Origin: a virus
Lineage: Duplodnaviria > Caudoviricetes
DNA: 53,446 nucleotides
Reading direction: 5' to 3' (one strand)
Virus record (IMG/VR): IMGVR_UViG_3300013285_000579
Coordinates: 1 to 53,446 of that record
Shown here: in pieces, positions 45,390 through 53,446 of the stretch
Layout: every line of letters begins with the position of its first letter
How positions within the stretch are numbered: position 1 is the stretch's first letter
Translations under genes and position numbers: made by a program
Notes under the pieces: model-generated
What the model was told of the DNA's origin: nothing
What the model saw: only the letters and a program-made list of their open reading frames with translations
The model's database searches: none

Positions 45390-45980
45390 ATGACCCACTA
45401 TACTCTACTCCAATTCCCGATTCCGGGCAAGCACGAAGCCCTATATAGGGCCCTACATGATAAGCTGGAGAACTTCGTTGACTCCCTTACTCTACTAGGT
45501 GCCGGTCTACATTCGATTGCAGATGTCGCTGCGGCCTATGAAGCAGATAAAACTTCAGACCATAAGATTATTGCCATAAAGGTTAACCCATTCAAGCGCG
45601 TACTTATGCTATGGCAATATGTTGTAATTGGCGGTACCCCATATGGTTACGGAAACGTTGACTACTCAGAATACAAAGACTTCAACGACTTTGTTGCATA
45701 TTACTTTTCGGATAAAGTTCCGGCAATCGAGGGTGCTCATATAAACATGAGTTCATTTTATTTCACTGAGACATTAAAGCCTGACTACTTACTAGATTTT
45801 GATACTTTTCCGAACGACATTAGAACCATTCCGGAGTTTGCATCCGATCAGGATACTGACTTCTTCCACGACCAGTATCAGGCTACATTGAATTACCGAA
45901 CCTTTTTCAACACAGCCAGCCAAGCAACAGTTGAAGCAGCATACGCAGCCGACATTGCCAAGTTCGGCTACACTTTCTAA
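45390..45980 (+). CDS. Degenerate Sulfotransfer_2-like protein
   Basis: 'KVNPFKR' in place of RNP..R; typical C-terminus 'YR.FF......V...YA.DI..FGYTF'. Confidence 0.5.
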   Translation: MTHYTLLQFPIPGKHEALYRALHDKLENFVDSLTLLGAGLHSIADVAAAYEADKTSDHKIIAIKVNPFKRVLMLWQYVVIGGTPYGYGNVDYSEYKDFNDFVAYYFSDKVPAIEGAHINMSSFYFTETLKPDYLLDFDTFPNDIRTIPEFASDQDTDFFHDQYQATLNYRTFFNTASQATVEAAYAADIAKFGYTF

Positions 45981-45989
45981 ACAAAAGGC

Positions 45990-46018
45990 TTGACACTAAA
46001 TCCGTAACGTGATATACT
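45990..46018 (+). promoter_or_regulatory. Sigma70 promoter TTGACA-17-TATACT (extended -10)
   Basis: Near-consensus; intergenic. Confidence 0.75.
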
Positions 46019-46088
46019 TCATGCATGAATTGAGAAATTGATTCAATAAAGAATTTTTGTGTTATGGGTAAGCTGTTGAAAATTGTGG

Positions 46089-46117
46089 TTGACAACAATA
46101 TGATATGGTGCTATAAT
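46089..46117 (+). promoter_or_regulatory. Perfect sigma70 promoter TTGACA-17-TATAAT (extended -10)
   Basis: Exact consensus, about 75 nt upstream of the leader ORF. Confidence 0.85.
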
Positions 46118-46192
46118 ACATACATAAATTGCAAAAGAGCGAAAAAGTAGCCTAATTTGCAATATTTTGAAACCAGGACTAAATAAATTACT

Positions 46193-46369
46193 ATGATGAA
46201 AACTTTCAATCAATCGCTGAAACATACGAGCTTGTGGGCAGTCGCTCCGCAGGGCTCCGTGCTAACAGCCTTTGAGGGGAATTATTCAACAGCGCCGACA
46301 TGTATTCGCGGATCAAATGATCAGGGCAGAATGCAACAGGGGTTCATAGAAGGAGATGGTTACGCTTAA
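46193..46369 (+). CDS. Putative leader peptide (58 aa; not in the ORF track)
   Basis: MMKTFNQSLKHTSLWAVAPQGSVLTAFEGNYSTAPTCIRGSNDQGRMQQGFIEGDGYA; follows promoters; its 3' end overlaps an antiterminator. Confidence 0.65.
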   Translation: MMKTFNQSLKHTSLWAVAPQGSVLTAFEGNYSTAPTCIRGSNDQGRMQQGFIEGDGYA

Positions 46370-46401
46370 TGTAACACTCTATAGATTTTATGAAACCCCT
46401 G
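46337..46401 (+). promoter_or_regulatory. Putative antiterminator hairpin
   Basis: CAGGGGTTCATAGAA (46337-46351) pairs with TTTTATGAAACCCCTG (46386-46401); inner GTTACG/TGTAAC stem with the leader stop codon in its loop. Confidence 0.65.
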
Positions 46402-46432
46402 GAAACGAAAGTTCTCAGGGGTTTTTGCTTTT
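46393..46432 (+). terminator. Intrinsic terminator (attenuator)
   Basis: AAACCCCTG...GAAA loop...CAGGGGTTT followed by a T-rich tract. Confidence 0.85.
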
Positions 46433-46471
46433 GTGAATAAGAAAACTGTTGTAAGAATGCAACAAAGGAAT

Positions 46472-46500
46472 TTGACAGTAAATGGATTTTAAGATACAAT
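46472..46500 (+). promoter_or_regulatory. Sigma70-like promoter TTGACA-17-TACAAT
   Basis: Near-consensus, but overlaps the start of a small ORF. Confidence 0.5.
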
Positions 46501-46619
46501 ATAAGAAAGCAGATTGGCTTAAGGAGTATACGTTAACTAAAGAGCAGTTCAAGCAATTGATTGCAAACAAGGTAATGCGAAACAAACCCCAATCTGTGGC
46601 TAGTAAATCACTAGTATGA
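46482..46619 (+). CDS. Small basic hypothetical protein (45 aa; not in the ORF track)
   Basis: MDFKIQYKKADWLKEYTLTKEQFKQLIANKVMRNKPQSVASKSLV; SD-like AAAGGA upstream. Confidence 0.45.
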   Translation: MDFKIQYKKADWLKEYTLTKEQFKQLIANKVMRNKPQSVASKSLV

Positions 46620-46639
46620 TTCTAGGAAAGTGTAAAAGT

Positions 46640-46930
46640 ATTCAGGGAACGAGGCCCTGGCAGCGCACTATAAACAAGCTGTAAACGGGCGGACAGAATA
46701 CATGAAAGTGTGATAGAACACATTAGTAAGACTTCTGGTTAGGGTATTGACCCTAACATACTCAGTAGAGATACTGGGTATTCTAAAACATATTGCTGAC
46801 GCCTCAGTTGTAAATTCTGCAGGATGAGAAGACAAAATAACGAAGTGTGCAGATGGGTTCGCACAATGCAATATGTTTTAGAATACATTCTGGGATAAAC
46901 ATTCACACAACATTTGTGCCCTAGAGTGTT
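46640..46930 (+). ncRNA. Unclassified multi-hairpin structured RNA(s) at the head of the tRNA array
   Basis: Serial hairpins (CAGGG..CCCTG; GTTAGGG..CCCTAAC; ATACTCAGTA..TACTGGGTAT); perfect 19-bp inverted repeat 46778-46796/46868-46886; no convincing ORF. Confidence 0.5.
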
Positions 46931-46941
46931 AATTAATGTAT

Positions 46942-47016
46942 AATGCCATGTCCGAGCGGCTTAGGTGATAGTCTGCAAAACTTTCTATGGCGGTTCGACT
47001 CCGCCTGGCATTTCCA
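46942..47016 (+). tRNA. trnC: tRNA-Cys(GCA)
   Basis: Loop CTGCAAA; T-arm GGCGG-TTCGACT-CCGCC; U73; CCA. Confidence 0.85.
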
Positions 47017-47023
47017 AATTTAT

Positions 47024-47099
47024 GCAACCTTAGCTCATCTGGTAGAGCACCGCCCTGAAGAGGCGGGTGTGCTTGGTTCAAGTCCAAGAGGTTGTACCA
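47024..47099 (+). tRNA. trnF: tRNA-Phe(GAA)
   Basis: CCGCC-CTGAAGA-GGCGG; full cloverleaf; CCA. Confidence 0.9.
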
Positions 47100-47106
47100 T
47101 GTATAA

Positions 47107-47181
47107 GCCCTTGTATCCTTAATGGTAGAGGTCCTGTTTTGTAAGCAGGGTGCGGAGGTTCGATTCCTTCCTGGGGCACCA
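47107..47181 (+). tRNA. trnT: tRNA-Thr(TGT)
   Basis: CCTGT-TTTGTAA-GCAGG; CCA. Confidence 0.9.
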
Positions 47182-47191
47182 AAGTTTTTAT

Positions 47192-47265
47192 TGGGGTATA
47201 GTGTAATGATAGCACAACAGATTTTGATTCTGTTGGCCTAGGTTTGATTCCTAGTACCCCTACCA
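47192..47265 (+). tRNA. trnQ: tRNA-Gln(TTG)
   Basis: ACAGA-TTTTGAT-TCTGT; T-loop TTTGATT variant; CCA. Confidence 0.85.
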
Positions 47266-47280
47266 ATATAAGGAGTTAGT

Positions 47281-47748
47281 ATGCCGTGGATTGAAAACGT
47301 AGCAAAAGTTGATATTACAACCGGCTTCCATCACGATGCTGGCGAAAACAGTATGCTGATCGGTATCAATGATCCTGCAGGCTGGCCACCAACTGCCAAG
47401 CATCAATTCAAAGAGCGTCACAACTTTGAGTTCCTTGATATCGAACTAAACGACTTTGCGCTTGATGAAGAAATGCGATGCAGCCAAGAGCAAGCTAATG
47501 AGTTGGTCCGACTTCTGCAACATGCATTAGAGAACAGGATGAACGTAGTTGTTCATTGTCACATGGGTGTATGTCGTAGCGGTGCAGTCACTGAACTTGG
47601 TGTTATGATGGGCTTTGACGATGTAGGTCGTTGGCGCAGTCCTAACTTGCTAGTTAAGCATCGTATGATGTCTGCATTGGGCTGGGCATATGATGAGAAT
47701 GAAAAGCCAAATATTGACGATTGGCGCACTATGACGAATGATATCTGA
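47281..47748 (+). CDS. Cys-based (PTP/dual-specificity) phosphatase-like protein
   Basis: HCX5R motif 'VHCHMGVCRSG'; SD AAGGAG. Confidence 0.8.
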   Translation: MPWIENVAKVDITTGFHHDAGENSMLIGINDPAGWPPTAKHQFKERHNFEFLDIELNDFALDEEMRCSQEQANELVRLLQHALENRMNVVVHCHMGVCRSGAVTELGVMMGFDDVGRWRSPNLLVKHRMMSALGWAYDENEKPNIDDWRTMTNDI

Positions 47749-47749
47749 T

Positions 47750-48946
47750 ATGGGTAAAAATATTTTAATAGTCGGCGGCGGCAGTGCTGGATGGATGACA
47801 GCAAGCTATCTAGCAGTACAAACGGATGCTAACATCACCTTAGTAGAAAGTCCTAATATTCCTATAATAGGAGTAGGGGAAAGTACAATACCTAGTATCA
47901 ATGACTTCATGGATGCAGTAGGCATTTCAGAACAAGACTTGGTAGAGAATTGCAACGCCATTAGAAAATATACGATACAGCATAACAATTGGAATGGAAC
48001 CAATGATACTTGGTGGCATCATTTTTGTTTCGATGAGAGTGAACATGATGAGCAGATTGAATGGATGCGTACACTGTCACTCCCTGATAAAAAATGGAGG
48101 CATGCTTATCACTTAGACGCCACTAAGCTAGGATTGTTACTGCGCGATAAGTCAGCTATTCCGGGTGGAGTAACGCATATTCTAGATGATATTCAAGAAG
48201 TGCAATTTGACGATGCAGGAGTAACCGCAGTTGTTGGTAAGAATGGAATATATACGGCAGATTTATATATAGACTGTACTGGATTCAAGGGCTTACTGAG
48301 AAAAACTCTAGGTGTAAACACTCATCAGCATCCGGGACTAGTTAATAACTATGCACTAGCAGGGCCCGGTGACTTCATGGAGCCGCAAGTTAATTACACT
48401 CAAACTTACGCAATGGATTGCGGCTGGCGATGGAGAGTATGTATCCAAAATCGTACAGGAAATGGATATGCGTTCAACAAAGATTTAATTAGTGTGGACC
48501 AAGCTCGTACTGAGTTCATTGCTAAGACACCGGGATTACGAATAGATAAAATATTCGAAGTCCCGATGTTCAATAGTTTTAATCCAGAACCCTGGAAACA
48601 AAACGTAGTAGCATTGGGATTGAGTTGTGGGTTCTTGGAACCGCTTGAAGCAACTGGCTTATTTTTGATTCACGCACCGCTAAAGTTATTAGCGAGATTA
48701 TTGAACGATGACAAAGCTACAGCAAAGTACAATCGGGTATGGACTCGTATGTATAATCACATTGCAGATTTCTTGAGTATGCATTTTACTACTAGTAAAT
48801 TAACCCATACTGAGTATTGGAGAAGCATTCCTAAAATTGATAAAGTAACTCTACCGGAGTATGGTCAAATACTATTCGATCAATACAGCTATAGAAATCT
48901 AGCTAAAGGTCGTAATATGGAAATAAAGGTTGACAACAATCCTTAA
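47750..48946 (+). CDS. Tryptophan-halogenase-family flavin-dependent enzyme
   Basis: 'IVGGGSAGW', 'IGVGEST', 'YIDCTGF', 'GWRWRV', 'GFLEPLEATG'. Confidence 0.85.
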   Translation: MGKNILIVGGGSAGWMTASYLAVQTDANITLVESPNIPIIGVGESTIPSINDFMDAVGISEQDLVENCNAIRKYTIQHNNWNGTNDTWWHHFCFDESEHDEQIEWMRTLSLPDKKWRHAYHLDATKLGLLLRDKSAIPGGVTHILDDIQEVQFDDAGVTAVVGKNGIYTADLYIDCTGFKGLLRKTLGVNTHQHPGLVNNYALAGPGDFMEPQVNYTQTYAMDCGWRWRVCIQNRTGNGYAFNKDLISVDQARTEFIAKTPGLRIDKIFEVPMFNSFNPEPWKQNVVALGLSCGFLEPLEATGLFLIHAPLKLLARLLNDDKATAKYNRVWTRMYNHIADFLSMHFTTSKLTHTEYWRSIPKIDKVTLPEYGQILFDQYSYRNLAKGRNMEIKVDNNP

Positions 48947-49069
48947 TTGTTGTAATTCATAAACAAAAGGTACTATATGAAGCGAAGTTCAGCGAAACTA
49001 TAGTGTCAATCATCGACCCCGTATATGGTCCTCGGTTGGCACATTAAAGACAATTTAATATGCACAACC

Positions 49070-49144
49070 CCATGCTAAACTTTAGTGGTGAAGTAACCGG
49101 CTCTTAACCGGAGGAACAGAGTTCGAGTCTCTGAGCATGGACCA
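49070..49144 (+). tRNA. trnK: tRNA-Lys(CTT)
   Basis: Loop CTCTTAA; acceptor CCATGCT/AGCATGG; CCA. Confidence 0.85.
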
Positions 49145-49149
49145 TATAT

Positions 49150-49225
49150 GGGATCATAGTTAAGCGGTAATAACATCAGGCTTTTAACCTGTAAATCCTC
49201 GGTTCGAGTCCGAGTGGTCCTACCA
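49150..49225 (+). tRNA. trnK: tRNA-Lys(TTT)
   Basis: Loop CTTTTAA; T-arm CTCGG-TTCGAGT-CCGAG; CCA. Confidence 0.9.
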
Positions 49226-49294
49226 TATGAAAACATACTACGCACGGTGAACAGCCCGTCCCAAGGAACTTGAGAGGATAGTGTGTTTCTATAT

Positions 49295-49369
49295 GGTAAT
49301 GTAGGACAATGGTAGTCCACCTCCTTCATACGGAGACTGTTACTGGTTCAAGTCCAGTCATTACCACCA
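49295..49369 (+). tRNA. tRNA with a CAT anticodon (elongator Met or Ile2)
   Basis: Loop TTCATAC; paired G1-C72, so not an initiator; CCA. Confidence 0.85.
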
Positions 49370-49377
49370 AGAGATAT

Positions 49378-49451
49378 ATTCGCGTAGCACAATAGTAGAG
49401 CGCCCGCCTGATAAGCGGAAGACGAAGGAGCGTAACCTTCCGCGGATACCA
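49378..49451 (+). tRNA. trnI: tRNA-Ile(GAT) with an atypical T-loop
   Basis: Loop CTGATAA; T-loop AGCGTAA; CCA. Confidence 0.75.
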
Positions 49452-49452
49452 A

Positions 49453-49595
49453 GTTTCTGAGATAGACGTAAGAGTCGAGTCGTAAGTAGCGGCGTAGCAT
49501 AGGGAACGCAGGTTTAACGTGAAATAAACAAGACCTCCTCTATACGAGACAAACATGTGAGTCCTCCCAGGAGGATAGTGTGGCTCTCAGAAAAC
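49453..49595 (+). ncRNA. Unclassified about 140-nt structured RNA between tRNAs
   Basis: Closing stem TTTCTGAGA/TCTCAGAAA; internal hairpin TCCTCCCAGGAGGA; no ORF. Confidence 0.5.
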
Positions 49596-49649
49596 CTACA
49601 ATGGCACTTGCTAACTTAGTGTCTATATAAATGAAGTTAGATTAATTTT

Positions 49650-49723
49650 GGGCTGCTCGTATAATGGGATTACACTAGCCTTGCACGTTAGATATTGGGG
49701 TTCGATTCCCCAGTGGTCCACCA
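49650..49723 (+). tRNA. trnA: tRNA-Ala(TGC)
   Basis: Loop CTTGCAC; G3-U70 pair; CCA. Confidence 0.9.
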
Positions 49724-49731
49724 AAATTCAT

Positions 49732-49809
49732 CTGTGTTTAGCTCAGTCTGGTCAGAGTTCTCGCCTTGGAAGTGAGGGGTCGGAGGTTCGAATCCTCCAG
49801 CGCAGACCA
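49732..49809 (+). tRNA. trnP: tRNA-Pro(TGG), copy 1 (A37)
   Basis: Loop CTTGGAA; C1-G72, A73; CCA. Confidence 0.88.
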
Positions 49810-49817
49810 AAATTTAT

Positions 49818-49891
49818 CTCCGATTGGTGAAATGGTATCACTCTGCGTTTGGGACGCAGGAGCGCAAGTTCGATTCTTGCATCGGAGACCA
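49818..49891 (+). tRNA. trnP: tRNA-Pro(TGG), copy 2 (G37)
   Basis: CTGCG-TTTGGGA-CGCAG; CCA. Confidence 0.9.
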
Positions 49892-49898
49892 ATGTTTT

Positions 49899-49973
49899 GC
49901 GCCTGTAGTATAACGGATAATATACGAGCCTACGAAGTTCGGGACGGTGGTTCGATTCCATCCAGGCGCACCA
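49899..49973 (+). tRNA. trnR: tRNA-Arg(ACG)
   Basis: Loop CTACGAA; D-loop GGATA (A20); CCA. Confidence 0.9.
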
Positions 49974-49981
49974 AAGTTTAT

Positions 49982-50057
49982 GGAGTTGTTAGTGTATCGG
50001 TTCGCACTACAGATTGTGAATCTGTCAGGATGGGTTCGACCCCCATACATCTCCCCA
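49982..50057 (+). tRNA. trnH: tRNA-His(GTG)
   Basis: ACAGA-TTGTGAA-TCTGT; G-1:C73; CCA. Confidence 0.88.
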
Positions 50058-50064
50058 ACAGTTA

Positions 50065-50138
50065 GCTCTTTTAGTTTAATGGGAGAACACAGTCTTGGTA
50101 TGACTGAAACCTAAGTTCGATTCTTAGTTGGAGCACCA
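50065..50138 (+). tRNA. trnT: tRNA-Thr(GGT)
   Basis: CAGTC-TTGGTAT-GACTG; CCA. Confidence 0.85.
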
Positions 50139-50180
50139 GATAGAATTAAACGGGTACTACGGTACCCTATAAATATGATA

Positions 50181-51467
50181 ATGAAATTTAACTTTATAGG
50201 CAGTGACTGCACATTCAATAACAAGTTACAAAAAGGCATTACCGTCGATAGCAGCTACACAGTAGTTAGTAATGTCGATGGGGATTATATAACCGGAGTC
50301 GAAAGTGAAAATATTATATTGATTGCACCGATTAGTAGTGAAGAACAGTATTTTGAAGCAACGAAACATGGTTTCATGCGTATGAAAGATACTAACTTCA
50401 ATTCTACTAACCTGTGTACTACGATATTTGTTTACATGCACGAGTTCGTTGACATAAATCATATCATTGATACCATCAATAGCTTTGACAAAATCAATAT
50501 GGTTGACAATATATGGATCTATCCAAAGATGGAAAAATATCAGGTTCGTAGTGATTTTATTCCCGACTTGCCTTGGCAGAAGAAACAGAAACCAGAGTTT
50601 TACATTAAACTCCGTGGTAGTAAGTACATCAGTGAAAGTTTAATTCACTTTGGTATGATAATTCAAAATGACAAGTATAATGTAATCAAGCAATATGATA
50701 ATCAGACAAAGATACCGTATACAGTAATTACTGAAGGCATTATGTTTCCTATTCAACTTGCTAAGGATACTAGAGCGTATCCTAATGTACGCATCTATCA
50801 TGCTGATCAATTGGTGTACGAGAAGATGACTACTGAGAATGGTAATATAACCGAGTTCCGTGATAGTCCGGTCTATGATTACTATGCAGCAGATGATAGA
50901 ACACATCTGGACTCTTACATAACTAAGTTCGAAACAACACGTAAGATATACTTGTCCAATACTGAATCAGTAACATTCAGTGGTTCTACTGCAATTGCAG
51001 GACTATCTAGCGGTAATATATTGGCAAAACTTGCATTTGAGAATAAACTGAAGCATGTCATATTCTTTGATTATAGTCAAGCCAGCATAAACTTCCAGCG
51101 TGATCTAATGAGTAGTACTGATCGGAAACTACTGTATGCTAACTCGTTAGATAACATGACGTTAGGATTCGATGATGCAACAGTAAGTGACCTTAATAGC
51201 CTGAATATGTCAGACATAGATATGTGGTATGATTATCTCTGTACGATTAACGTAGAGTTTGTTAATATCGATCTTCGAATAGATGAAGATATTGAGAGAT
51301 TATTTGAATTGATGCCAAATGATAGCACACTCTGGATTAGTAATGTGTTATGTTATATTACATCAATGCGAGATTACTCTACTGATGTATATAAACTGAT
51401 TGATTCACGGTGTCATCAAAAGAATATCACAGTATTACCTCACACAAGGATATATTATGAAAGCTAG
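50181..51467 (+). CDS. Hypothetical protein
   Basis: Long ORF after TATAAATA (50168-50175); C-terminal half weakly Rossmann-like ('VIFFDYS'). Confidence 0.6.
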   Translation: MKFNFIGSDCTFNNKLQKGITVDSSYTVVSNVDGDYITGVESENIILIAPISSEEQYFEATKHGFMRMKDTNFNSTNLCTTIFVYMHEFVDINHIIDTINSFDKINMVDNIWIYPKMEKYQVRSDFIPDLPWQKKQKPEFYIKLRGSKYISESLIHFGMIIQNDKYNVIKQYDNQTKIPYTVITEGIMFPIQLAKDTRAYPNVRIYHADQLVYEKMTTENGNITEFRDSPVYDYYAADDRTHLDSYITKFETTRKIYLSNTESVTFSGSTAIAGLSSGNILAKLAFENKLKHVIFFDYSQASINFQRDLMSSTDRKLLYANSLDNMTLGFDDATVSDLNSLNMSDIDMWYDYLCTINVEFVNIDLRIDEDIERLFELMPNDSTLWISNVLCYITSMRDYSTDVYKLIDSRCHQKNITVLPHTRIYYES

Positions 51468-52056
51468 GATTACATGTAATGCAAATCATGCCTTGGGCCA
51501 AAAGTTCGCCGAGTTATTTGATGAAGTGACATACTTCAGTCGTAGTACCGGGTTTGATGCACACGGAGACTTATCTGAGTTTCTAGCAGATACTCCCAAC
51601 TATGATTGGACTATTAATCTTACTAGTGCCCCTATGTTCGGGCAAGTTAAAGTACTGGCACAACTTGATACATACTGCGACAGACATGACATTAAACACA
51701 AGGTCTTTAACATCGGTAGCTATGTGGGTACTGGACTATTAGCTGAACCTGAAACAAGTTATGACATTGAGAAATCAAGTCTTAAATATGCACATAAGAA
51801 AATTGCATATGAGTATATGTTTCATGATAACTGCCTGGATAGCTACTTGATCAACTTGGGTTTCTTGGAGAAACTAAGCCGTGGTATACATGAGAAGTAT
51901 CAGCATATCAATACATTGGGCCTTGATAAAGTCAAGGAGAATGTACAGTTCATGCTTGACCGCCCCTACATCAAGGAGATGTATCTACAATACAAACAAC
52001 CCGGCAACTATAGAATCAACAGTGGTGTTGGTATATTGATACCCGGCGTATACTAA
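51457..52056 (+). CDS. Short-chain dehydrogenase/Rossmann-like hypothetical protein
   Basis: 'FSRSTGFD', 'FNIGS' and YxxxK ('YDIEK'); SD AAGGA. Confidence 0.5.
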   Translation: MKARITCNANHALGQKFAELFDEVTYFSRSTGFDAHGDLSEFLADTPNYDWTINLTSAPMFGQVKVLAQLDTYCDRHDIKHKVFNIGSYVGTGLLAEPETSYDIEKSSLKYAHKKIAYEYMFHDNCLDSYLINLGFLEKLSRGIHEKYQHINTLGLDKVKENVQFMLDRPYIKEMYLQYKQPGNYRINSGVGILIPGVY

Positions 52057-52057
52057 T

Positions 52058-52124
52058 GCCCACGTGGACAAATTGGCAAAGGCGTTTATGAACAAATTTA
52101 TGCCCTAATGGCGCAAGTGGCGAA
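52058..52124 (+). pseudogene. Two truncated tRNA 5' halves (Leu-like)
   Basis: GCCCACG-TG-GACAAATTGGCAAAGGCG and GCCCTAA-TG-GCGCAAGTGGCGAAA resemble acceptor plus D-arm; no anticodon or T arm follows. Confidence 0.45.
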
Positions 52125-52148
52125 AAAAATATATATTATGAGGTCATT

Positions 52149-52496
52149 GTGAAATTTGAAATTGATGAAAGTTATATGTGTGACGTTTCTATTCGGAAAG
52201 AATGGGGTGTATACGACCACATCAAGCACGAAGATTTAGAACCCTATCAACTATTCAACATTATCAAAGGTGAGGATAGATGTTCATCAGTTAATAGTGA
52301 AGATCATCCTGAGTTCAATAAACTTAGAGAGCATTTGGGTAGAGAAGGATTCATTAGAATACAAAGAAGTTCATGGAACGGCGACATGGTAACGAAACCA
52401 TTCACCCTTAATGGCAAGAACTTCAAACTAGAGACAATATTTCCGTGTGGAGCTGCAATAAAGTCACACATGAAATATATGAAATATATGAAATAA
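52149..52496 (+). CDS. Hypothetical protein
   Basis: GTG start region with SD GAGGT; 'DHPEF..LR..L...GFI......WNGD.V.KPF'. Confidence 0.6.
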   Translation: MKFEIDESYMCDVSIRKEWGVYDHIKHEDLEPYQLFNIIKGEDRCSSVNSEDHPEFNKLREHLGREGFIRIQRSSWNGDMVTKPFTLNGKNFKLETIFPCGAAIKSHMKYMKYMK

Positions 52497-52499
52497 CGC

Positions 52500-52579
52500 C
52501 TCGCTGTAGTTCAAAGGATAGAATAGAATAGAAGTTTCCTAAACTTTTGATCCCCGTTCAACTCGGGGCAGCGGGACCA
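52500..52579 (+). tRNA. trnR: tRNA-Arg(CCT) with a 5-nt duplication after the D arm
   Basis: GAAGT-TTCCTAA-ACTTT; an extra ATAGA copy; CCA. Confidence 0.7.
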
Positions 52580-52584
52580 AACTC

Positions 52585-52613
52585 TTGACAAATAGGCCTA
52601 TTTGTCGTATAAT
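52585..52613 (+). promoter_or_regulatory. Perfect sigma70 promoter containing a 20-bp palindrome
   Basis: TTGACA-17-TATAAT; GACAAATAGGCCTATTTGTC at 52587-52606. Confidence 0.85.
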
Positions 52614-52621
52614 AAACACAC

Positions 52622-52696
52622 GGGTCTTTAGTGCAACGGATAGCATACGAGTCTTCGAAACTCATGACGTAGGTTCGATTCCTACAGGACCCACCA
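52622..52696 (+). tRNA. trnR: tRNA-Arg(TCG)
   Basis: Loop CTTCGAA; A20; CCA. Confidence 0.9.
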
Positions 52697-52738
52697 GAAC
52701 TAAGTTAAATACATGTAACAGAAACGCAGGAGTACAAC

Positions 52739-53299
52739 ATGGCTGTTCTAGCACTAGACATTTCGGGAATTCCAAGACAATGGATCTCATACGATGACGC
52801 AATCACTTACCAAGCTAAAGATGCGGTAGCATGGAGCATGGGCGAAGTGGTTGCAAGATATCGCGGCGGATACCAGAACGACGGATCAATTAGTTACCTA
52901 GAAACTTCTAGCATCATTGCTATTAAAGGCCATGGCTTCAATCCATACAAGCATTCAACTGTTGCACTGACTAACAAGACATTGTTTGGTCGCGACAGAA
53001 ACGTTTGTGCGTATTGTGGCGAACATCACGTTAACTATCATCACTTGTCACGTGACCACATCAAGCCAAAGTTCTTGGGTGGTGAAAATACTTGGATGAA
53101 CGTTGTCACAGCATGTAAGACTTGCAATAGTGATAAGGGTCACAAGACCTTGAAGGAATGCGGTAAGAAACTTTTGTACGCACCGTACATCCCTTCTCAT
53201 CACGAAAACATGATCCTACAACATCGTAACATTCTTGCTGATCAAATGGATTACTTGCTAGCAGGTGTGCCAAAGCACTCGCGTATATTGCTTTCATAG
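52739..53299 (+). CDS. HNH endonuclease (McrA-like, tRNA-array associated)
   Basis: 'RD...CAYCG', 'DHIKP...GG...W.NVVTAC..CN..K'. Confidence 0.88.
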   Translation: MAVLALDISGIPRQWISYDDAITYQAKDAVAWSMGEVVARYRGGYQNDGSISYLETSSIIAIKGHGFNPYKHSTVALTNKTLFGRDRNVCAYCGEHHVNYHHLSRDHIKPKFLGGENTWMNVVTACKTCNSDKGHKTLKECGKKLLYAPYIPSHHENMILQHRNILADQMDYLLAGVPKHSRILLS

Positions 53300-53330
53300 A
53301 AAGATTGGGAAGACTCTTTGCAAAAAGAGT

Positions 53331-53370
53331 TTGACAAAAATATTTCGTTGTGATATACTTTGTATAAATA
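53331..53370 (+). promoter_or_regulatory. Tandem sigma70 promoter (TTGACA-17-TATACT) and T4 late promoter TATAAATA
   Basis: -35 at 53331; -10 at 53354; TATAAATA at 53363-53370. Confidence 0.75.
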
Positions 53371-53405
53371 AAGATGTAGTGAGTAACTTCACTATGTCAC
53401 AAATT

Positions 53406-53446
53406 GCCCCTTTAGCTCATCTGGTAGAGCAACTGTTTTGTAAGCA
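53406..53446 (+). tRNA. trnT: tRNA-Thr(TGT), truncated by the window end
   Basis: GCCCCTT-TA-GCTCATCTGGTAGAGC-A-ACTGT-TTTGTAA-GCA. Confidence 0.8.

Follow-up and report, generated by a model that had tools for sequence, protein, structure and literature searches.

The trpL, hisL, pheL, thrL, leuL and ilvL leaders run to 14–32 codons and are rich in one or a few cognate codons. T-box riboswitches bind one transfer RNA (tRNA) directly and contain no open reading frame (ORF). In the pyrBI and pyrE attenuators, a coupled ribosome blocks the terminator itself and thereby brings about read-through; the pyrL leader has 44 codons. The nearest published concept that we found is toiL, a multipurpose upstream ORF that precedes topAI-yjhQ in Escherichia coli and is described as sensing antibiotics (PMC12121999). 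Here we describe an element at positions 46089–46426 of a 53,446-nucleotide (nt) stretch of viral DNA, the whole of IMG/VR record IMGVR_UViG_3300013285_000579 (the window), in which a promoter, a 58-codon leader ORF (ORF1) and an intrinsic terminator precede a tRNA array. On balance, we read this element as a ribosome-dependent transcription attenuator that heads a jumbo-phage tRNA array and whose leader is kept so as to hold all 20 amino acids; such a switch would probably let the phage make more RNA from its tRNA region when translation falters. How phage tRNA arrays are regulated is largely unknown, and our literature searches returned neither a leader-peptide attenuator before a phage tRNA array nor a leader containing all 20 amino acids.

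Layout of the element

The mapped parts, from P1 to the tRNA array, all lie on the forward strand. The leader transcript would start from promoter P2 (46089..46117; TTGACA-17-TATAAT), which matches the sigma-70 consensus at 12/12 positions and has TG before its −10 hexamer. ORF1 (46193..46369) ends in a stop codon at 46367..46369, the terminator occupies 46394..46426 and the tRNA array starts at 46942. The initial annotation had proposed this succession of promoter, 58-codon ORF, intrinsic terminator and tRNA array, and the promoter match and our folds place every part where it had been put. Read from the sequence, the features by which leader attenuators are known are thus present, namely a short ORF between a promoter and genes, an intrinsic terminator and a competing antiterminator.

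Retention of all 20 amino acids

ORF1 encodes all 20 amino acids within its first 43 codons, using 35 distinct codons there and 40 overall, among them all four Ala and all four Gly codons; these counts bear out those of the initial annotation. As a chance baseline we took windows from the window phage's own 43 genes, in which all 20 amino acids occur in 0.87% of 43-residue and 6.6% of 58-residue windows, and at least 40 distinct codons occur in 0.7% of 58-codon windows. The classical enrichment in cognate codons is absent: ORF1 is free of codon runs and instead represents every amino acid, most of the rare ones by a single residue. The G/C-ending codons that had earlier been singled out as notable are unremarkable, a G+C fraction at third codon positions as high as the 0.48 of ORF1 being attained by 10.8% of 58-codon windows. 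The description of the leader as ‘pan-codon’ likewise had to give way to ‘pan-amino-acid’. Its codon count is rare among the phage's own windows, but once the peptide is taken as given, the 40 distinct codons compare with an expected 36.6 ± 2.2 (P = 0.086 for the window); for a set of 32 distinct coding sequences to which the window belongs, P ran from 0.003 to 0.81 with window codon usage applied to all of them; codon diversity beyond that of the peptide is weakly raised.

The composition is kept across the family. At E ≤ 0.01 we found 62 homologous proteins, down to ~41% identity, and a few more by exhaustive profile search; 58 of the 62 contain all 20 amino acids, three lack Cys only and one is a fragment. 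We pooled 94 distinct peptides of 44–70 residues, leaving out a fragment (P0034) and a peptide cut by a contig end (L057) and trimming the N-terminal extensions of P0028, P0052 and P0084 to the family start. The set of 20 is complete in 90 of these peptides and short of Cys alone in the remaining four; random peptides of family composition and the same lengths hold all 20 in 1–8% of cases. The ORF2 family of the same genomes, whose members are similar in length, served as a control, and none of its 16 distinct peptides has all 20 (15–18 types). The set is usually complete before the switch is reached: in 85 of 89 peptides, each of the 20 amino acids has occurred before the switch arm begins, five peptides without a recognisable arm motif (P0060, P0070, P0071, P0082 and L039) being left out of this count.

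A composition of this kind could be a legacy. We consider it unlikely, on the evidence here and in the following sections, that promoter, ORF1 and terminator simply make up a small early gene of the usual kind, in which ORF1 encodes a functional small protein, the hairpin over its 3′ end is an mRNA-stabilising or RNase III-type structure, and the full set of amino acids goes back to a diverse ancestor. Some 18 of the 20 types of residue do sit at mostly fixed positions, as such a protein would have them, and because most residue types are at conserved positions, much of the all-20 retention is explained by descent. Descent falls short of the observed level, however, in a tree-aware null that lets the alignment columns evolve along the family tree independently of one another, each with a fitted rate and the composition observed in it: 41 ± 13 of the 94 leaves are expected to hold all 20, and 0/2000 runs reach the observed 90, to which members of 44–54 residues contribute. 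When the alignment-ambiguous residues D, Y and V are ignored, P is 0.0005; taken singly, Cys gives 0.017 and Val 0.037.

Residues also relocate in ways that a protein with an inherited composition would not lead one to expect. Exactly one Cys is present in 86 of the 94 peptides, distributed over at least eight alignment columns; in the window its codon is 46301–46303. Three peptides without Trp at its usual column carry one in a nearby column, and Glu and Tyr, judged by eye, appear elsewhere where their usual sites have changed. The null model is simple (F81 per column, one MAFFT alignment and one FastTree tree), and the effect is large despite this simplicity, so that the excess of all-20 retention over the null lends strong comparative support to the original proposal that the leader samples the whole amino-acid set. 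The tRNA array of one relative, which also covers all 20 amino acids, fits the same proposal.

Competition between antiterminator and terminator

The end of ORF1 is predicted to take part in two alternative structures. The antiterminator hairpin (46337..46401) has leader codons 49–53 (46337–46351) as its 5′ arm and a 3′ arm (46386–46401) that holds the terminator 5′ arm. In our folds, CAGGGGTTCATAG (46337–46349) pairs with 46386–46401, terminator 5′ arm included, and the hairpin continues through a middle stem (GAG/CTC) to an apical stem formed by 46359–46364 with 46370–46375. The leader stop codon falls within the apical loop (46365–46369), and both this placement and the pairing of the last leader codons with the terminator 5′ arm had been foreseen in the initial annotation. 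The terminator consists of a stem of 46394–46402 with 46415–46423, an upper 3-base-pair stem with a GAAA loop, and a U-run at 46422–46426; because the stem is interrupted, a simple terminator scan does not report it. Folding of both conformers, a check suggested at the outset, gave mutually exclusive structures that differ by <1 kcal/mol in the window. The terminator is the minimum-free-energy structure in the window folds, and a transcript ending before the terminator 3′ arm folds wholly into the long hairpin.

This competition is found throughout the family. All 39 distinct units, which come from uncultured phage contigs, have the hairpin and the terminator after the ORF, and in 39/39 the minimum-free-energy fold of the nascent RNA pairs the terminator CCCC with ORF bases. 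The free energy of the antiterminator relative to that of the terminator ranges from −5.7 to +4.7 kcal/mol across these units (median −1.3). Shuffling the sequence that precedes the terminator leaves a competing fold that trails the terminator by 11.3 ± 3.1 kcal/mol on average, and a competitor of native quality arises in 0.2% of 500 shuffles. A hairpin that competes with a terminator at near-equal energy in every unit would be superfluous for an mRNA stabiliser, which argues against the small-gene explanation. Among 29 distinct 3′ regions, the nascent RNA forms 19–29 pairs between the ORF tail and the 3′ untranslated region (UTR), and the apical loop contains the whole stop codon in 19 of these regions and part of it in 6; in 3 more the stop is no further than 1 nt from the loop, and in the last it is 5 nt off. 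The distance from the stop to the CCCC is 20–33 nt, and the terminator arms begin 17–30 nt past the stop.

Misalignment of the hairpin by MAFFT kept RNAalifold, run on the whole transcript, from recovering much beyond the terminator, and we hence relied on per-sequence folds and a covariance-model alignment. In that alignment of 29 sequences, which was fitted to the structure and so favours it, 92.3% of cells are paired versus 83.6 ± 0.6 in shuffles, and 12 of 24 antiterminator pairs show changes on both sides versus 6.9 ± 1.5. None of 500 shuffles attains any of five measures, and slid partners pair in 34–53% of cells. The apical and middle stems have clade-specific sequences that keep their complementarity; the basal stem, which is the part that competes with the terminator, is less variable. 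In two relatives (L006 and L009) the G-run is retained in a different frame, with SRGF or FRGF replacing QQGF and an extra T that perfects the stem, and conservation of the G-run out of frame is a further point against a gene kept for its protein. In another relative (L016), the leader arm carries a change that is matched in both arms of the terminator, with G-U intermediates in L003 and L012. The terminator stem itself hardly varies: pairing extends to 95.2% of cells, 6 of its 10 pairs never change, and a compensatory change (A-U to G-C, in two sequences) affects one.

The ~300-nt transcript as a whole also folds unusually well (z = −5.2; 0/100 shuffles as good). This would suit a different and highly improbable explanation, in which termination yields a small RNA, structured or dual-function, as the end product and the ORF is tolerated or secondary. 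The conserved 5′ UTR, with a hairpin that covaries by eye, and the very few synonymous changes in the central stretch of ORF1 point the same way. Against a small RNA stand the ORF, which is intact in all uncut copies and shows in-frame indels and fewer nonsynonymous than synonymous changes per site, the little conserved structure that RNAalifold sees in the ORF body, and the lack of an Rfam family match. The Rfam scan, T-box included, gave no match to the leader at E up to 1 for the window and up to 0.1 for six relatives.

Assembled metatranscriptome contigs from related strains touch this region as well. One in run X1 spans 46210–46619 and so links ORF1, the terminator and the whole of ORF2; runs X2 and X3 have contigs that begin at 46383 and 46371, respectively, and continue beyond the terminator; and one X4 contig ends at 46427. 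We give these contigs no weight because they are assembled, reveal neither true ends nor expression levels and may derive from DNA in the libraries; nor do we read anything into stretches that no contig covers.

Signs of selection on the leader peptide

Several features give good evidence of selection on the translation of ORF1, as far as comparison of sequences can indicate it. The reading frame is open in 28/28 loci; of 24 further loci that were processed, 23 have it intact and one is cut by a contig end. The indels seen in the codon alignment, a 15-nt deletion among them, keep the frame, and the ratio of nonsynonymous to synonymous substitution rates (dN/dS) is 0.05–0.97 over 55 pairs and mostly 0.3–0.5 for the more diverged ones. 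Where the 3′ end of the locus is unbroken, ORF1 has 51–59 codons. One unit (L039) has a 70-codon ORF with a replaced tail, and its ORF1 frame runs on, without terminator, P3 or ORF2, into sequence matching the structured-RNA region described below (L039:2995-3207); this looks like a deletion. ORF1 is present as one copy in each of 5/5 viral records.

The peptide is conserved as well as composed. H11 and I38 are invariant, ~10 positions are conserved at ≥90%, and together with dN/dS below 1 these data alter the initial annotation, which had predicted covarying structure with an unconserved peptide: the structure covaries, but the peptide is not free to drift. A conserved peptide and a dN/dS mostly of 0.3–0.5 are what a small-protein gene would show. 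Part of the conservation, on the other hand, may stem from the fact that most rare residues are single-copy. The strongly conserved blocks KHT.LW, AFEG, SIRG and FIEG also recall arrest peptides, and an attenuator with the same switch architecture could act through nascent-chain arrest, as TnaC, SecM and ErmCL do, sensing a specific small molecule or factor, with the all-20 composition incidental or secondary. We regard this as improbable: it leaves unexplained the relocation of residues that keeps every amino acid present, and FIEG, the most conserved C-terminal block, overlaps the RNA arm, so that selection on the RNA may account for its conservation.

Models and family searches give no sign that the product of ORF1 is a folded protein. 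Pfam and PHROG returned nothing for ORF1 and nothing for ORF2, and AlphaFold2, given a 66-sequence alignment, predicted no secondary structure for ORF1, with a predicted local distance difference test score (pLDDT) of 59 and a predicted template-modelling score (pTM) of 0.12. The absence of a predicted fold and of a family match runs counter to the small-gene explanation; a weak likeness of ORF1 to one WD40 repeat would favour it. In the exhaustive profile search, the leader profile gave many weak per-repeat matches in long proteins (P0063, P0064, P0068 and others), and five of six that were checked are WD40 proteins, the matched pattern being KT.KLW...G..L.TFEGH..V.SV.FSPDG. ORF1 has the length of one repeat only and no predicted fold, and hhalign gives a probability of 11%. 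We therefore reject a WD40 identity as spurious or at most convergent; the resemblance is probably due to chance and may, less probably, reflect a distant origin from a repeat unit.

Distribution and genomic setting

Peptide searches followed by alignment searches yielded 28 loci and 29 more from a more distant clade. In 27 of 30 loci scanned, a same-strand tRNA array begins 330–1400 nt after the ORF1 stop, the other three having ≤510 nt of flank, and none of the 30 has a tRNA upstream of ORF1. The module is conserved in uncultured phages, probably jumbo phages, and in the sequences at hand it always heads a same-strand tRNA array, a fixed place that the small-gene explanation does not account for. 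Near and distant DNA searches of GenBank phage records with 45390–47300 gave tRNA matches only, and tblastn of two family members against 50,697 GenBank phage records gave nothing, so that no cultured phage is known to carry the module. An upstream 196-residue protein, used as a search anchor, led to no relatives.

Because CheckV puts the completeness of the record at 15%, relatives include contigs of 249–363 kb, and the genes of the window include virion, RCC1-repeat, ribonucleotide reductase and radical-SAM genes, the window is probably a piece of an uncultured jumbo phage. Its tRNA array (46942..53446) comprises 14 genes found by ARAGORN and two found by Rfam only, with ORFs between them, and continues past the window end. 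The two Rfam-only genes lie at 47107–47178 (53.0 bits; anticodon loop TGT, Thr, judged by eye) and 49378–49448 (49.0 bits). Between tRNA genes, the interval 47281–48946 holds a tryptophan-halogenase-family flavoprotein (402 residues, E = 2.5e-86) and a 155-residue dual-specificity-phosphatase-like ORF that falls under the Pfam cut-off for DSPc. The relative whose array covers 20/20 amino acids (G002) has 42 ARAGORN tRNAs, every one of them downstream of ORF1 on the same strand within ~13 kb. Two relatives, on two contigs, have a tRNA with anticodon TTA (L037:5337-5409 and L038:4297-4369), which ARAGORN labels ‘tRNA-Stop’ and which is of the ochre-suppressor type. TAA is the ORF1 stop in most family members, so that a suppressor tRNA could let ribosomes run past the leader stop into the switch.

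A P2-type site of at least 10/12 with a 17-nt spacer precedes ORF1 in 38/38 distinct units that have upstream sequence, and scores at least 11 in 31 of them. The distance from the −10 to the ATG is 75–78 nt in most units, 69 in one and 46 in three, and the 5′ UTR of the window has 75 nt. This UTR contains a hairpin (46128..46163) with arms ATTGCAA and TTGCAAT and a conserved A-rich loop. In alignments of the relatives, judged by eye and unscored, its arms vary in a compensatory manner (TTGCA/TGCAA, CTAGA/TCTAG and CTGCA/TGCAG); the three units with the nearer promoter lack it. The motif AACCAGGACTAAATA (46171..46185), found in 35 of 39 distinct units, is presumed to be the ribosome-binding region, with AGGA 14 nt before the ATG; many genes of the window phage lack an obvious Shine-Dalgarno site. 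A further promoter-like site, P1 (45990..46018; TTGACA-17-TATACT, 11/12 with TG present), lies 100 nt upstream of P2, and the same stretch occurs in one relative (L003). P1 is followed, ahead of P2, by a small GAAA-loop hairpin and then a T-run, and the stretch as a whole (45990–46088) could represent a promoter-terminator module that is either a remnant or a second copy.

Downstream of the terminator, a small hairpin, TGTTG...CAACA (46447..46464), is conserved in most relatives with a variable loop (unscored). Just behind it lies promoter P3 (46472..46500; TTGACA-17-TACAAT, 11/12), 50 nt after the terminator arm. The initial annotation had entered this site as a caveat, and rightly so: a P3 of at least 10/12 is present in 25 of 37 units with downstream sequence, which makes the unit look self-contained, as the small-gene explanation would have it. 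P3 falls within the first codons of ORF2 (46482..46619), which encodes a conserved 45-residue protein with the pattern DW..H/Y.LT.EQ..QLI; the family ranges over 45–56 residues, and relatives show many in-frame synonymous differences by eye. P3 directly precedes ORF2 in 13 of the 27 loci listed, where the ORF2 ATG is at +10 from the start of the −35. In the window, ORF2 codons 5–6 form the −10. Because the ATG lies between the −35 and −10 of P3, transcripts from P3 cannot encode ORF2, and its expression needs read-through of the terminator; a few relatives have an additional promoter copy upstream, from which ORF2 could be transcribed too. P3 and ORF2 are both missing from some relatives.

A conserved structured RNA lies between ORF2 and the first tRNA (46636..46888, extending toward 46930) and would be downstream cargo of the switch. 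RNAalifold on 14 sequences predicts 41 pairs, 19 of them with compensatory changes. The RNA is ~210–270 nt long (for example L004:3421-3673), and its predicted structure includes an 18-base-pair stem that encloses a variable insert, and a hairpin whose AACGAG loop is conserved. It has no Rfam family match at 46636–46888 and is possibly a new tRNA-array-associated RNA.

The original claim that the switch gates the array holds in part. Some relatives, L006 among them, have no other strong promoter; in L006, the ~1.5 kb ahead of the first tRNA contain no strong same-strand promoter besides the one before ORF1. The window, by contrast, has P3, and strong promoters also lie within its array, for example at 52585 and 53331. 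Control of the window tRNAs by the switch would therefore be partial, since P3 and the array-internal promoters mean that the switch is not their sole gate.

Proposed mechanism

In the mechanism that we propose, a consensus promoter would give rise to a transcript carrying an ORF of 44–70 codons. During RNA synthesis the long hairpin, roughly isoenergetic with the terminator, would fold first. A ribosome close behind the polymerase, at codons 45–58 or at the stop, would cover ~46350–46382 and unwind the hairpin, freeing the terminator arms so that transcription would end. A ribosome that lags, is stalled at an earlier codon or is absent would leave the hairpin to trap the terminator 5′ arm, and polymerase could then read through into ORF2, the structured RNA and the tRNA genes. 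Stalling could come from a shortage of any one charged tRNA or from general translation stress. In the window, the output of the switch would add to that of the constitutive promoter behind the terminator; in some relatives, the promoter of the switch would be the sole strong one for the head of the array. That the antiterminator depends on the ribosome is something we infer from geometry and from what is established about attenuation; translation of ORF1, and an effect of it on termination, are likewise inferred.

Because all 20 amino acids would be sampled before the switch, any single shortage could trigger read-through, and the element could act as a homeostat of tRNA-region transcription. 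A broader form of this idea, which we put forward more tentatively as a serious possibility, is that of a ‘decoding homeostat’ in phages with complete tRNA sets, where the leader is selected for all 20 amino acids and a stall at any codon raises transcription of the tRNA region. The stalls in question could arise from starvation, from host tRNA decay in infection or from anticodon-nuclease defences.

Besides the simplicity of the null model and the structure-fitted alignment, already described, the following observations weigh against our reading of the element as a ribosome-dependent, pan-amino-acid attenuator. If a ribosome footprint margin of four codons is allowed, all 20 amino acids lie upstream of the arm in just 37 of the 89 peptides, because D and E often fall within the last four codons before it. 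With one or a few codons to sample each amino acid, the leader would respond weakly to mild starvation, and a purely compositional sensor would have no need of the peptide conservation that we see. The 14 nt between AGGA and ATG make a long spacing for a Shine-Dalgarno sequence. In 6 of 39 units (L009, L022 and L032–L035) the U-run has decayed to TTTCCA. In these six, TTTCCA(A/G)TT follows the terminator stem and the downstream sequence differs; the degraded U-runs look like recombination joints and would weaken termination. The promoters that follow the terminator in 25 of 37 units and lie within the array limit what the switch could control. Finally, we found no anti-antiterminator or pause hairpin, RNAalifold offering just a 6-base-pair pairing of the start-codon region with TCATAG, whose invariance leaves no covariation by which to judge it, and an untranslated transcript would therefore also read through, unlike in the trp paradigm.

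Comparison with known attenuators

A decoding homeostat as outlined above would be the first attenuator to sense the aminoacyl-tRNA pool as a whole rather than one amino acid, and the first cis-regulator to be described for a viral tRNA array. If our reading of the element is right, ribosome-mediated attenuation would widen from one amino acid to the entire decoding supply, and translation stress or tRNA-targeting defence would be linked mechanistically to phage tRNA expression. The comparative signal, a composition that is retained while residues relocate, is unusual and can be searched for upstream of other tRNA arrays. The element would also be a compact, portable sensor of global translation capacity, and reporters in E. 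coli should work because the promoter is a consensus sigma-70 promoter.

Among described systems, toiL shares the principle that stalls at different positions, under different stresses, change RNA structure and turn expression on; it works through occlusion of a ribosome-binding site and Rho-dependent termination, whereas the phage element would use an intrinsic terminator and antiterminator, and the abstract that describes toiL makes no claim of an all-amino-acid composition (PMC12121999). Like T-box riboswitches, the phage element would control genes of the decoding apparatus by antitermination upon a shortage of charged tRNA. It differs from them in having a leader ORF, and the scans described above gave no T-box match. 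With the pyrBI and pyrE attenuators it would share the gauging of ribosome-polymerase closeness over a long leader ORF, but with the opposite outcome: the ribosome would block the antiterminator rather than the terminator, so that coupling leads to termination.

The closest structural parallel is to the trpL-type attenuators. Both have a short leader ORF, an intrinsic terminator and an exclusive antiterminator that overlaps the end of the leader, and in both the position of the ribosome decides, or in the phage would decide, between the two folds. By contrast, the phage leader is longer, at 44–70 codons, is free of codon runs and holds all 20 amino acids; its design appears to be two-state, with no counterpart found of the 1:2 anti-antiterminator; and its cargo consists of ORF2, a structured RNA and tRNA genes in place of biosynthetic enzymes. 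Structurally, then, the element appears to fit the leader-peptide attenuators, with completeness of the amino-acid set taking the place of cognate-codon enrichment.

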